DNA of 64,000 nucleotides from Eledone cirrhosa (lineage: Eukaryota): positions 84,320,001 through 84,384,000 of the forward strand of contig OZ024745.1 in the NCBI GenBank assembly GCA_964016885.1, written 5' to 3'. Both the position numbers and the translations under genes were made by a program. Shown here one piece after another: positions 10,433-52,470 of the stretch (position 1 is its first letter; every line of letters starts with the position of its first letter). Under the pieces are notes generated by a model. The model saw only the letters and a list, made by a program, of their open reading frames with translations. It was not told where the DNA came from and ran no database searches.

Positions 10433-10520
10433 TTTATATACTGTTCTATATTTTTGAGACGAGTAATTATTTACATTATATACATTGGACGGATAGTTGT
10501 CCTCATCTTGTTTTGTTGTT

Positions 10521-10566
10521 AACACAACGTTTCGGTTGATATACTCTCCAGTCTTCATCAGGTGTT
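10521..10566 (-). ncRNA. Minimal type I hammerhead ribozyme
   Basis: Minus strand: aacac CTGATGA agactg-gagagtatat-caacc GAAA cg TT gtgtt; stem I 5 bp, stem II partly decayed. Confidence 0.7.
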
Positions 10567-10792
10567 GTTATTATTAGCGTTTGTTCAGGTCACTGCCTAG
10601 AGTTGTACTCGGAATCTTGAGGTTGTAGCCCGCTTTTTAAGTGTAGCCACTTTTTTTTCTTCTTCTCGAGAAAACAAAAAATTCACGAGAAGAAGAAAGA
10701 AAAGGTGATTAAAAAGCGGGCTACTAACCTCAAGATTCCGAGTACAATTCTAGGCAGTAACCTGAACAAACGTTAATAACAACATCACTGGG

Positions 10793-10837
10793 ACACCTGA
10801 TGAAGGCTGGAGAGTACATCAGCCGAAACGTTGTATT
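10793..10837 (+). ncRNA. Minimal type I hammerhead ribozyme
   Basis: acac CTGATGA a-ggctg-gagagtacat-cagcc GAAA cg TT gtatt; stem II 5 bp, stem I partly decayed. Confidence 0.72.
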
Positions 10838-11471
10838 AACAGCAAAACAAGATGAGGACACCTATCCGTCCAATGTATATAATTATGTATGTGTGTGTGA
10901 GCGTGTGTGCTCGTGTGTGTTAATATCCTGTGCATGTTCGCATGATTAAGAGAAGCCATCACATTCCAAGTTACTGTCCGCATCCAATAGATTCTAATCT
11001 GTAATATGAGACGGTTCTCATATTCTGGAAAGAGTTACCACTCTGTCATAAGAACATCAAATAATCATGCATGGCCAGATATTGAAATAGCCTATTTACT
11101 CCGCCATCTTGAATTATTATATAGCCGGGATGCATAGCATATTATATTTCTATGAAAGACAATGTTGTACAGAAAACACAATGGAGTGGCGTTTGACAGA
11201 AAGCCTGCTGCAATGTTTGTGCATACAATAATGTACACATACACAGATCATAGAATATTGCAGGCGCACATTCACACTATACGATAATACATACATACAC
11301 GCATACACATACATCACACAATAACGCGCATACACATACGCGCACCACACAATAAAGCGCACATACACACACACTGACAATAGTCAACAGAGAGTAAGTT
11401 CCAGTGATGCGCATATATATATATATATATATATATATATATATATATATATATATATATATATATATATA

Positions 11472-11569
11472 AAGGGTGTCCCAAATATTGTATACATACT
11501 TTGATTACCTGTAAAAGCAATATTTATTAGAATGCTGATGAAGCGTGTATACATTTTTGGGGACATCTG
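11472..11569. mobile_element. Tc1/mariner-type MITE (~100 bp)
   Basis: Imperfect TIRs AGGGTGTCCCAAATATTGTATAC / GTATACATTTTTGGGGACATCTG in TA context; partial second copy near 63130-63205. Confidence 0.65.
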
Positions 11570-11695
11570 TATATATATATATATAGTAATAATAATAAAT
11601 TTGAAGACTAAAATCCAAAGAGGGCTCGATAAGGATAAATATATATCAGATATATAAGAACCGTAGAGTAAATATTTATTAAAATAACAGATTAA

Positions 11696-11746
11696 AGTTT
11701 AAGCAAAGAATCGCTGCTTTCACCCTTAACGGGTTCTTCTGAAACT
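11696..11746 (-). ncRNA. Hammerhead ribozyme with full stem III and one core substitution (CAGAAGA)
   Basis: Minus strand: agttt CAGAAGA accc-gttaa-gggt GAAA gca-gcgattctt-tgc TT aaact; all three stems pair. Confidence 0.65.
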
Positions 11747-12400
11747 AAAAAAGTCAATCTGTGAACGCAGAAGTAAATATTTCAAAAACCGTTGCAACCG
11801 AAAGAAGACAGGAAGACGATACTTTGGTTCGTGGAAACGTTCCCTGGCAAAGAACGGGAAAAAAACGAAGATAATGCGTCATTATTTGGTGCAGTGAAAA
11901 AACGCGAAGACAAAACCACGTTTATCGTATAAATGAAGTCGTAGACTAATATTCTATTAGGTGGTTCATGGAGACGTTCTCTGGCAATGAACGGAAAAAA
12001 CGATAATACGTCATTATGTGGAGCAATGAAAACAATTACACGCAAAGACAAAACCACGTATAACTGAAGTCGTAGACTAAAATTCTATTTAGGAAACCGA
12101 ATGATTCTCGGCTTCAGAGTTAAGAATAAAGTAAATAAAATACAGAGGTTATTGAAATCATTTATATACATACACACATCCATATACGTACATACACAAG
12201 CATACGCGAAACCACTCCCCATGGGTATGCAAATACAAGCACGTACACACAAAGAAAAACACATACACACGCACATACAGAACCCAGACAACGCCTGTGC
12301 CGCACACATACGAACGTATACACCAAATACACATGAAAAAATAAATAAAAACATATATATATATATATATATATATATATATATATATATATATATATAT

Positions 12401-12648
12401 AATATATATAAGATCAAAAGATGGTTAAAAGAGTTCCATGTATTTTATTATGCGCATTTCAAAAACAAATATCATCATGCAATAATATTTGTGTTTTCAT
12501 CAGATAAAATAGGAAGACATGATATGAAGGTTAAAAAACACTTGTGAATAGTGCAGTTTTAAATCAACATATGATGATATTTGTTTTTGAAATGCGCATA
12601 ATAAAATACATGGAACTCTTTTAACCATCTTTTGTTCTTATATATTAT
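12401..12648. repeat. Foldback (~78-bp arms) between (TA)n tracts, containing a hammerhead
   Basis: 12401-12478 mirrored by 12571-12648; extension to ~12732. Confidence 0.85.
12442..12510 (-). ncRNA. Type I hammerhead ribozyme
   Basis: Minus strand: attttat CTGATGA aaacacaaatatta-ttgcatga-tgatatttgttttt GAAA tgcgca TA ataaaat; 7-bp stem I, long stem II, palindromic stem III. Confidence 0.88.
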
Positions 12649-49190: not shown

Positions 49191-49661
49191 TGTACAGCCA
49201 CCAGAAATAATATCTGTGAAATATACAGCGCCATCTACCTGTTAGCTAGCTACCTCAACGTGAAACAAAAGAACCCTTAAAACCTACCAGAATAAACGCC
49301 TACACATCGGCTAAACATCAAACGATTGTTTCTGTATAAATAGAGTGGTTCCAAACACTTCGCTAGTCGACTTTTGGCAGAGTCAGCTAGCGTATCGTTG
49401 TTCCTCGCCTCTGCCACCCTTTGTCACTCACACACGCCTCGTACCTCGTATCGTCGCTTCATGTGAAAATAAATAGCTGATCGAATTTACATCTCGCCTT
49501 GCTTCGTCCTTTCAACTTCTGCTTTCGTCTGTCCATCCTCAACAGTTCTTTTAAGGGCTATCTTCAGATCTGATTAGACCGTATGCGATAGCAGTCCTTC
49601 TAAGGGCTATTCTCGGATCTGATCAGAAGTAGTGACTAGATTGACTAACCACGCCGCTACA
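49191..49661 (+). repeat. 3' LTR
   Basis: TGTACAG...GCTACA preceded by purine tract GGCAGGGGGATAA. Confidence 0.93.
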
Positions 49662-49760
49662 CACACACACACACACACACACACACACACACACACAGAC
49701 ACACACACATATATATATATATATATATATATATATATATATATATATATATATATATAT

Positions 49761-50636
49761 ATATGAGTAATATATATGATGAAACAGATACCAACACATC
49801 TGTATTTATATTGCAAAAGAAAGTTAGCCAGAATGAAGAATATTAATTATTTTACCACAGTTCGTCCACATCGATTTAAAATAATAAATCGACAAAAACT
49901 AGCTGCGCTGCCAAATGGCTATGATGTTTATACATATTTAAATTTCAAAGTCAAACCTGTTCAGTAGATAAGTTTAAACCTCAAAATCCAAACATGTTTC
50001 GAGATGAATATAAGTGTAGGAATATCATGCCACTGCTCTCCTCAGTAAACATCCAGAGACAATTGATAAGCTTCACTTCTAAATAATTTAAAAGACTGTG
50101 TGACGCACATGGGTTCACAGATTCAAGCTAGTCTCATAACCGTACTGCTAGAAATAACAGTCGTATATATGAGGCGAATTTCAGCTCGACGAAGAGCAGT
50201 TATATTAAGTGTAATTAATTCTTTTACAATGGAATTAGCTCATAAGGAAATATTCCTGAGCCGTGTATAAAAGTAATATATATGAGTAATATATATGATG
50301 AAACAGATACCAACACATCTGTATTTATATTGCAAAAGAAAGTTAGCCAGAATGAAGAATATTAATTATTTTACCACAGTTCGTCCACATCGATTTAAAA
50401 TAATAAATCGACACACAGTCTTTTAAATTATTTAGAAGTGAAGCTTATCAATTGTCTCTGGATGTTTACTGAGGAGAGCAGTGGCATGATATTCCTACAC
50501 TTATATTCATCTCGAAACATGTTTGGATTTTGAGGTTTAAACTTATCTACTGAACAGGTTTGACTTTGAAATTTAAATATGTATAAACATCATAGCCATT
50601 TGGCAGCGCAGCTAGTTTTTGTCGATTTATTATTTT
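49761..50636. repeat. Partial tandem (519-bp period) plus terminal inversion; diverged relative of 35101-36130
   Basis: 49761-49894 repeated at 50280-50413; 50412-50636 is the reverse complement of 49878-50102. Shared motifs ATATTGCAA..AAAGTTAGCCA, ACATATTTAAATTT..TCAAACCTGTTC, TGCTAGAAATAACAG. Confidence 0.9.
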
Positions 50637-51099
50637 GTGTGTGTGTATATATACATATATATATACATATATATATATATTTATATATATACCTATATAT
50701 CTACATCAACATATATAGAAAACACACACACGTATATATATATATATACATAATTCTACATCATATCTACATAAATATCTACATAAATATCTACATAAAT
50801 ATATATATATATAGACAACACAGACGTATATATATATACAGAGAGAGAGAGAGAGAGAGAGAGAGCGAGAGAGAGAGAGATAGATAGAGAGAGAGAGAGA
50901 GAGAGCGAGAGTGAGAGAGAGAGAGAGAGAGAGAGAGAGAGAGAGAGAGAGAGAGAGAGAGAGAGAAGTGTTTAAATGAAGAAGCATTAGGAAAATTAAA
51001 TATTGTGTGCTTCCTACCGCAAATGACCATAACAAGAGTCGATCATAATAAAGAGACAGGCGCACGGGTACTTAACACGTTTCCTCAACCACTATTTAT

Positions 51100-51237
51100 A
51101 ATTGTTTCTACTTTTGGCACAAGGCCAGCAATTATCCCAGTGCATTACTGGTACTTTATTTTATCGACCCCGTATGGAGGAAAGGCAAAGTTAACCTAGT
51201 CGGGATTTGAACTCAGAATGGCAAGGGCCGTAACTCT
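51100..51237 (-). mobile_element. 5'-truncated SINE
   Basis: Family core. Confidence 0.88.
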
Positions 51238-51805
51238 ATTTATAATGAGTGGCTATTAGTAAAGTCATCAGCATTGGGACGCGCACATTTCATATGTACA
51301 CTTGTATATATATACGCACACATATATATATATATAAACACACATTTATATATATGCATGTGTATTATATATATATATATATATATATATATATATATAT
51401 ATATATATATGTATATATATTGATATATATATATATACACACATTTATATATATGTATGTGTATACACACATTTATATATATGTATGTGTATTATATATA
51501 TATATATATATATATACACACACACATTTATATATATGTATGTGTATTATATATCTATATATATATGTATATATATATATATATATATAATATATATATA
51601 TATATATATATATATAATAATATATATATATATATATATATATATATATATATATATATATATATATACATACATATATAGATATATAATACACATACAT
51701 ATATATAAATGTGTGCGTATATATATATATATATATATAATACACATACATATATATAAATACATTCAATATATATATATACATATATATATATATATAT
51801 ATAAA

Positions 51806-51954
51806 ATTATTTCTGAAGACGGCATATATATGTGTTTGGTATGTATATTTAATTTTGATAGTTTGTATAATTTTGTATAATTTTGTACATAGATCTGTTG
51901 AATATGCATGCCAATTCTAACACATATATATCCTAGAAACGATCGTTAAATAAT
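51806..51954 (+). ncRNA. Type I hammerhead ribozyme with a very long stem II
   Basis: attattt CTGAAGA cggc-atatatatgtgtt-tggtatgtatatt...aatatgcatgcca-attct-aacacatatatat-ccta GAAA cgatcg TT aaataat; insert between (TA)n tracts. Confidence 0.8.
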
Positions 51955-52387
51955 GAACTTTTTTGTTTAATATAAGGAACTGTTTCATTGTTTTTCATTA
52001 TTTTTTTAATATTTTATCTTGACTCTGTATTCCGTTTATCTTTCACCGAAAGTGATTTTTCATTGCATCTCTTCTTTCCATGATATCCGGATTACATTGA
52101 GTTCTTCATACGGATTGGACACTACCGTAAACTCTTGGTAGATTTATCTACATATATATATATATATATATATATATATATATATATATATATATATATA
52201 TATATATATATATATATATATACATATATATATATATATATATATATATATATATATATATATATATATATATATATATATATATATGTATATATATATT
52301 TATATATATTTATATATTTATATATTTATATATCTGAAAGACGGAAAATAAGAAAATTATAAAAATTAGATTATGTACTAAAATTTC

Positions 52388-52470
52388 ACTCCAACTAATT
52401 AGTTTCTGAAAGGGAATAAACATGGTTTCCGAATGGAACACGTGGGGAAGGCCTTTCGTCATCAGGAAGT
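52388..52470 (-). ncRNA. Type I hammerhead ribozyme
   Basis: Minus strand: acttc CTGATGA c-gaaagg-(~35 nt)-cctttc-a GAAA ctaattag TT ggagt; palindromic stem III. Confidence 0.8.

Follow-up and report, generated by a model that had tools for sequence, protein, structure and literature searches.

How one stretch of DNA comes to hold a series of mostly unrelated hammerhead ribozyme motifs close to (TA)n microsatellites is the question raised by a 64,000-nucleotide stretch of the Eledone cirrhosa genome (assembly GCA_964016885.1, contig OZ024745.1, positions 84,320,001 to 84,384,000; hereafter the window), an AT-rich, microsatellite-rich animal sequence within a 3.0-Gb assembly. A first-pass annotation had read the motifs as 3'-end debris of a diverse set of TA-targeting Penelope-like elements (PLEs) or retrozymes, and our analysis bears this out, as nine of the eleven families trace to PLE coding sequence and one is a retrozyme-like tandem unit of about 530 nt. 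The inserts are almost certainly PLEs, and the motifs are very probably type I hammerheads from the pseudo-long terminal repeats (pLTRs) of many co-existing families, mostly of the Hydra clade, whose 5'-truncated insertions remain in (TA)n. The genomic copies are for the most part probably inert debris.

All 15 hammerhead copies listed by the first-pass annotation, at 11 sites between 10475 and 52470, were located at the stated coordinates with patterns drawn up by eye (Table 1; copies are numbered by family, with a and b for the two members of a pair). Under a strict scan rule (exact CUGANGA, helices I and II of at least 4 bp each, palindromic helix III, UH) bases 1-52800 gave seven matches, six of them listed copies and the seventh, at 4354, a copy of the family that forms a 429-nt tandem array at 53478-62575 (21 units, each with one CTAG-palindrome hammerhead), while 40 local-dinucleotide shuffles and 20 further shuffles, a control that the annotation had itself proposed, gave none. 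Nine of the 15 window copies fail the strict rule. Copies 1a, 1b, 6 and 7 do so through copy-specific decay, since other genomic copies of families 1, 6 and 7 do pass (the copy of family 6 in the window carries A6G where the family core is CTGATGA); copies 5a, 5b, 8a and 8b have a short helix I and a non-palindromic helix III, and the family 2 copy has a variant core. Families 2, 5 and 8 depart from the rule by design, not decay. The majority core is exact in 10 of 11 families and each motif keeps a constant position relative to the element end. Rfam gave no hammerhead family at gathering score in the window, nor any among the 150 of 426 weaker matches that were listed, which were microRNA models on simple repeats. 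An initial scan had missed motifs in which helix II is long or is preceded by an extra base. Two other lines of evidence were tried and rejected: bare GAAA-plus-palindrome anchors (20 against a shuffle mean of 4.2) are too loose a pattern for ribozyme calls, and folding energy alone is no evidence of a ribozyme, as whole-motif z-scores were strong in just two of the seven motifs folded, those of families 10 and 4.

The stems differ from family to family apart from the pair at 20416 and 36222 (79% alike over 67 nt, the only other matches spanning 17-26 nt), as had been noted. The description of helix III as a succession of different palindromes held for all six palindromes named, but not for 11696, where helix III is a hairpin, for 23835/23951 (CATTG) or 37344/38097 (GAAC), which are non-palindromic, or for 29891 (TATGTA); by family, the palindrome is exact in 1, 3, 4, 7, 9, 10 and 11, near in 6 and lacking in 2, 5 and 8. 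Proximity to TA was likewise borne out in part. A (TA)5 or longer tract lies within 120 nt downstream of the cleavage site in 8 of 15 copies (9 if an element-internal tract at 8b is included) compared with 9-11% of random positions, but in copies 4b, 5a, 10 and 8a it lies at 154-269 nt and 1a has none nearby; 1b reaches a TG tract at 58 nt. The inserts are short, as claimed, with the exception of three that measure 1.3-2.4 kb. Together the eleven account for 16% of 10475-52470 (22% if three weaker inserts are added), so that about a fifth of the anonymous DNA between the microsatellites, and not most of it, can be put down to such debris.

In order to place the inserts we searched the genome with each of them. 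The searches returned 153-3010 first-look candidates, of which 40 were scored for each insert, and these are not copy numbers (family 1, 153; 2, 2347; 3, 726; 4, 2160; 5, 914; 6, 1084; 7, 506; 8, 3010; 9, 1106; 10, 210; 11, 3009). All eleven inserts proved to be multi-copy, with best matches mostly 88-99% identical, and nine are tied to PLE coding sequence, with the hammerhead at the 3' end of the coding parent, whereas single-copy inserts unlinked to Penelope elements would have spoken against the annotation. Seven of the nine are of Hydra-clade type (families 2, 3, 4, 5, 6, 9 and 10), one is of Neptune/Nematis type and one probably of Penelope/Poseidon type. The parent of family 4 has an 893-codon Hydra-clade frame with RWK, DKT, CxCx5C and YIG motifs and without CCHH, identified by motifs and tblastn, as was the GIY-YIG fragment in the window; a Pfam search of the frame did not recognise it. 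That of family 9 is a whole unit of 3.6 kb between direct 406-nt pLTRs that contain the hammerhead, and direct pLTRs around an open reading frame (ORF) were seen in locus L082. The family 10 parent is a Hydra-clade PLE of about 6 kb with a simple-repeat-rich 3' untranslated region (UTR) of about 3.5 kb. For families 10 and 2, co-linearity with Hydra-type coding sequence was seen in three loci apiece. RWK and DKT were both read in families 4 and 9 and DKT in family 10. Of the combination of a CxCx5C linker, a C-terminal GIY-YIG and no CCHH, the linker was read in families 2, 4, 6, 9 and 10; families 3 and 5 were assigned by tblastn similarity only. The 3' ends of the Hydra-clade families adjoin TA in most retrieved copies. 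Named relatives of the parent proteins are from octopod, sea anemone, bryozoan and sea cucumber, the best for one of them being from Argonauta hians at 41% identity. A low-complexity insert follows the reverse transcriptase (RT) in the family 4 frame.

Of the remaining two coding families, family 8 has parent frames, read in loci L038 and L043, that combine a CX4CxxC linker with a C-terminal GIY-YIG containing CCHH, as in Neptune or Nematis, and its pair in the window encloses a broken GIY-YIG fragment at about 37518-37773 (+; Pfam E 0.0078, under the cut-off). The family 8 frame also has a long asparagine-rich insert of the kind described for rotifer Penelopes (PMC3846280). Family 1 runs into a Penelope/Poseidon-like endonuclease in two loci (L113 and L115), where only the GIY-YIG C-terminus was seen and upstream extension did not reach the RT part; it is only loosely tied to TA. 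Families 5 and 10 had been considered as fixed short elements, an idea that was rejected because both extend upstream.

The inserts end at two fixed places. In families 3, 4, 5, 6, 9, 10 and 11 a short end lies 41-70 nt past the predicted cleavage site and is followed, some 85-135 nt beyond, by a long end, which in family 5 is represented by one retrieved copy and the window. The ends of family 8 are near 200-212 and 247-268 nt and those of family 2 near 21-25 and about 116 nt; family 7 showed a short end only and the ends of family 1 are loose. The stretch between short and long end is the start of the next tandem unit, as read in locus L082. When inverted pairs were scored, 41 of 48 joined one short and one long end, none joined two short or two long ends and seven were unscorable; 13 of the 41 are not independent (10 come from a query holding both ends and 3 from the window) and the remaining 28 have the same pattern. 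At 12 of 12 ends with a known read-through, chosen by eye with one doubtful end excluded, the read-through begins with a TA-phase match of 2-9 nt, of at least 3 nt at 11, against a chance background of 0.19 and 0.06, respectively. A CTC(C/T) word about 6-12 nt past the short end was noticed, post hoc, in all seven of families 2, 3, 4, 5, 6, 9 and 10, and several long ends finish in TAC; an RT-binding or promoter signal is possible.

These ends suggest a reaction in which the GIY-YIG domain would cut both strands of a TA tract and each cut 3' end would base-pair over a few nucleotides with a UA-rich site within the element RNA, one strand priming at the short site and the other at the long one. 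The two reverse transcriptions would proceed upstream across the hammerhead, in most cases end early, and be joined head to head. Since the cleavage site is read through in the DNA copies, the template must have been uncleaved or re-ligated RNA; a single tandem RNA or two RNAs may have served. With a palindromic helix III, cleavage would be limited to tandem or paired RNAs, and non-coding units such as family 11 may be carried by the same machinery. In folding predictions the 6- and 8-base palindromes of two copies pair with each other at -9 to -10.5 kcal/mol, whereas TATATA and CG pair only weakly, and none forms a hairpin alone; such pairing would be in line with the dimer model of PMC4209133. 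Four sequencing runs consisted of contigs of unrecorded kind, which cannot show cleavage; their depth, which is not copy number, rises toward the hammerhead end. The anatomy fits the scheme published for Poseidon, to which a different site for each strand and UA annealing are our own additions, and on balance we favour target-primed reverse transcription that uses both strands and starts at two internal sites of the RNA.

Several points weigh against this account. The one PLE to have been purified, a Poseidon, primed without homology and at the same sites on both strands (PMC11167929). Apart from the dependent pairs, one arm entered two pairs, and the short and long cut-offs and the end points were set after inspection. 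Arm length in families 4 and 9 shows no preference, the short-end arm being longer in 8 of 15 pairs and the long-end arm in 7. With regard to parentage, families 3, 5 and 6 are each continuous with Hydra-type coding sequence in a single locus (a Hydra ORF, a Hydra-like ORF and a Hydra endonuclease, respectively), in regions rich in nested PLEs, a weaker linkage because nested insertions are common, such as that of family 3 inside family 2 in the window. Upstream extension of family 7 in the genome reached no parent. The resemblance of the Hydra-type frames to printed Hydra proteins, Hydra-1_Obim included, was judged by eye, and the motifs of family 8 at 37344/38097 have the weakest fold, with a helix I of about 2 bp. 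A model with one RNA and one RT following behind another, under which the long-end arm is never the longer, failed on the same 7 of 15 pairs; the arm-length comparison was dropped for families 3 and 10, where it is confounded by self-reference.

Inverted pairs might instead arise by self-priming or template jumps on antisense RNA, as proposed for rotifer Penelopes from palindromes at inverted junctions (PMC3846280). Family 3 offers a comparable case, a nearly identical inversion junction at CATATG that recurs in all 12 loci shown and represents either a hot spot or a composite moved as a unit. Self-priming gives no obvious reason, however, why one outer end should be short and the other long or why both should begin with a TA-phase match, and a purified PLE nicks and extends both strands (PMC11167929), so that we regard this origin as unlikely.

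The TA tracts, for their part, could be tails made by the elements, templated or through RT slippage, rather than pre-existing targets. Both priming sites start with TA-phase bases, and TA/CA repeats are present in the 3' UTRs of families 2, 9 and 10, so that the elements spread simple repeats. Hydra-type 3' UTRs measure 1-3.5 kb and consist largely of TA/CA-type simple repeats, and the elements therefore spread their own target. Yet TA also stands on the 5' side of many truncated copies (family 7; window sites 6, 7 and 10), the TA tract that houses family 3 is also present in family 2 copies without family 3, tandem units pass the short end without a TA run, and insertion of the Hydra clade into (TA)n has been published (PMC8557442). 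That the tracts are tails is accordingly quite improbable, and integration into existing TA tracts remains the reading that we prefer.

Even less probable is that the inserts are mostly retrozyme monomers spread through small circular RNAs independently of PLE 3' ends. Family 11 comes closest, being a non-coding unit of 526-530 nt that is tandem elsewhere and holds one type I hammerhead, with PLE-protein matches in 3 of 11 loci that we judged to be neighbours; the 429-nt array family also has TA-flanked single copies, and family 7 is mostly a fixed 163-nt piece. Against this, 9 of 11 families continue upstream into RT or GIY-YIG coding sequence, and co-linear coding parents refute it for families 2, 4, 8, 9 and 10. 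Family 11 shares the fixed ends and inverted arms of the others and therefore looks like PLE cargo. Chance matches in AT-rich, repeat-rich DNA have next to no likelihood for the set as a whole, where they are refuted by the empty strict shuffles, a majority core in every family and a fixed place relative to the element end, even though the core is short, 9 of 15 copies fail the strict scan and helix I of family 8 is so weak; chance could account for family 8 and for the motifs at 49991/50469.

The suggestion that this genome may be very ribozyme-rich gains support from a small blind sample of 11 stretches of 8 kb at round coordinates (88 kb), in which the strict scan found eight hammerheads in five stretches, four of them in one, and none in 20 shuffles. 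This density of 91 per Mb extrapolates roughly to 270,000 genome-wide (Poisson 118,000-537,000; bootstrap 68,000-545,000). The retrieved loci, a deliberately biased 950 kb, gave 183 matches in 27 clusters, five with 85-116 nt between the core halves. The helix II insert of family 10 folds as one long hairpin (z -6.1) and that of family 9 more weakly (z -1.6). Family 2 has a hairpin helix III and a core of CAGAAGA (U4A) that recurs in 35 of 43 copies; the 3' UTR of the element is CA/TG-rich. The core variants U4C, A6C and C3U/G8A are named in PMC3088659, and U4A is not among them in the portion available. A literature search in which most subscription journals were outside reach found no paper on cephalopod hammerhead abundance and none that describes helix II inserts of 100 nt in PLEs, a U4A family or a strict short-plus-long rule. 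Work by Lunse, Weinberg and Breaker (2017) reportedly deals with dimeric PLE hammerheads and may cover some of these variants. A bolder reading, which we hold tentatively and think somewhat more apt to fail than to stand, is that the genome holds 100,000-500,000 hammerheads from dozens of PLE families, at a density above any published figure that we saw, many of them with some 100 nt inserted in helix II or with a U4A core and so missed by standard searches, that Hydra-clade integration is an obligatorily asymmetric two-primer reaction in which each (TA)n strand anneals to a different UA site much as telomerase does to its template, and that the elements feed back on their target through 3' UTR repeats.

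Table 1. Inserts with hammerhead or hammerhead-like motifs in the window
Insert	Position	Strand	Motifs	Helix III	Remarks
Family 1, inverted pair	10475..10883		10521-10566(-), 10792-10837(+)	CG	Probable Penelope/Poseidon-type parent
Family 2, 3' part of Hydra-clade PLE	11570..12932	-	11696-11746		Interrupted by family 3
Family 3, two-armed insert	12412..12732	-	12441-12511	TGCGCA	Nested in TA tract of family 2; inverted arm holds 3' half of hammerhead plus long end only
Family 4, inverted pair	18175..20619		18224-18278(-, short end), 20416-20470(+, long end)	TATATA	Arms ~1.1 kb, 99-100% complementary
Family 5, inverted pair	23691..24048		23842-23885(-, long end), 23959-24002(+, short end)	CATTG	
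Family 6	29764..29998	+	29891-29956		Inverted long-end fragment precedes
Family 7, 163-nt end	36159..36322	+	36222-36277	TATATA	Between two TA tracts; related to family 4
Family 8, inverted pair	37080..38343		Hammerhead-like 37344-37385(-), 38097-38138(+)		Neptune/Nematis-type parent
Family 9, end	39008..39180	-	39042-39162	CACGTG	92-nt helix II insert
Family 10, end (long end)	51806..52151	+	51806-51954	CGATCG	116-nt helix II insert
Family 11, part of non-coding unit	52335..52720	-	52388-52470	CTAATTAG	Unit of 526-530 nt
Further inverted-arm insert	49765..50636		Weak hammerhead-like 49991-50045(-), 50469-50523(+)	CATG	Absent from first-pass list

Other inserts in the window have a similar build. 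Those at 35101-36128 and 49765-50636 are related (70%) and have direct and inverted duplications in a PLE-like layout, with a hammerhead-like motif in the second only. The TA-flanked insert at 36366-36870 (-) has GAAA-CAGCTG-TA at 36454, with a damaged core some 95 nt upstream; the two may represent a decayed hammerhead with a long helix II. No copy of this insert was present among the retrieved loci. An inverted-arm, TA-flanked insert at 2106-3723, in which no hammerhead was detected, has eight matches in retrieved loci at 77-94% and could be a PLE end. The 429-nt array is preceded by an inverted piece of its family at 52819-53400, with a TA-flanked solo copy at 4069-4626, and the family occurs in the blind sample and in 15 retrieved copies. 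The rest of the annotated sequence comprises a long terminal repeat (LTR) retrotransposon at 44104-49657 (LTRs of about 480 nt, 93% alike, with RT, RNase H and integrase matches in several broken frames), the 3' part of a long interspersed element at 1-2069 (RVT_1, DUF6451) that ends at a TA tract, a 22-nt minisatellite of 49 copies at 39502-40575, and a repeat of about 190 nt resembling a short interspersed element, in some cases as inverted pairs (5123-5323, 5561-5750, 9758-9987, 10248-10439, 14421-14908, 29350-29607, 33305-33429, 34668-34845, 48203-48428, 51093-51239). Coding-like remnants at about 42500-43800 and 25900-27150, which had no clear Pfam match, we take to resemble a Helitron and a DNA transposon.

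Elements of this kind are already known, and what is new here are the variants and a mechanistic pattern open to test. That no Rfam match reached gathering score in such a window suggests that hammerhead numbers in genomes of this kind are badly under-counted. The PLE integration reaction, still poorly understood, is recorded in thousands of young copies; direct predictions for work in vitro follow from the short-plus-long rule and from the TA match at the two priming sites, and the predicted ribozymes with a long helix II or a U4A core are natural variants for assay.

The PLE hammerheads of PMC4209133 are the closest precedent, with many heterogeneous families to a genome, motifs that mostly lie dispersed and single and come from truncated PLEs, pairs on opposite strands at distances of 100-700 bp, a short helix I, a palindromic helix III and sometimes an extra base before helix II. 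The palindromes found here differ in being often 6-8 nt long, helix II inserts reach 92-116 nt and one family is U4A. Our estimate of about 270,000 exceeds the 2,000-9,000 given there (about 2,000 in Schistosoma, 4,000 in coelacanth and 9,000 in Xenopus), as well as the roughly 5,000 of a mussel and 126,247 of axolotl (PMC7229834), all obtained with other descriptors. Inverted copies that are 5'-truncated and bear a tail at one end have been described before (PMC8557442, PMC3846280).

With the Hydra clade (Craig et al. 2021, PMC8557442) the elements share a C-terminal GIY-YIG, RWK, DKT, CxCx5C, the lack of CCHH, the hammerhead and a (TA)n target. Members are described there as generally under 3 kb, with few families outside cnidarians and tails of 30-40 bp, whereas we found at least seven families in 42 kb, units of 3.6 (family 9) to about 6 kb (family 10), 3' UTRs rich in simple repeats and tails of 85-135 nt. 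The supplement lists a TA-targeting Hydra family with a hammerhead for Octopus bimaculoides, Hydra-1_Obim, whose short helix II hammerhead matches, by eye, none of those in the window. For Octopus vulgaris 31 recently active PLE families are reported (PMC13282606, 2026), with no mention of ribozymes in the part of the main text available.

Family 11 and the 429-nt array resemble non-LTR retrozymes (PMC7229834; bioRxiv 10.64898/2026.07.22.740005) in being non-coding hammerhead monomers and tandems in a PLE-bearing genome. Published retrozyme units are of 150-390 bp, in contrast with 526-530 nt and an 8-nt palindromic helix III in family 11, which itself carries the PLE insertion signature of fixed ends, inverted arms and TA; a PLE origin of retrozymes has been argued (PMC7761336; bioRxiv 10.64898/2026.07.22.740005). 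With the Poseidon element PAc of Anolis (Frangieh et al. 2024, PMC11167929), whose protein helps its hammerhead cleave, our inserts would have in common two internal initiation sites 3' of the hammerhead that bound the genomic tail, the nicking and extension of both strands and uncleaved RNA as template. Priming by PAc showed neither homology nor a strand difference in where synthesis starts, whereas in Eledone the ends match TA by 2-9 nt and scored pairs are always short plus long.

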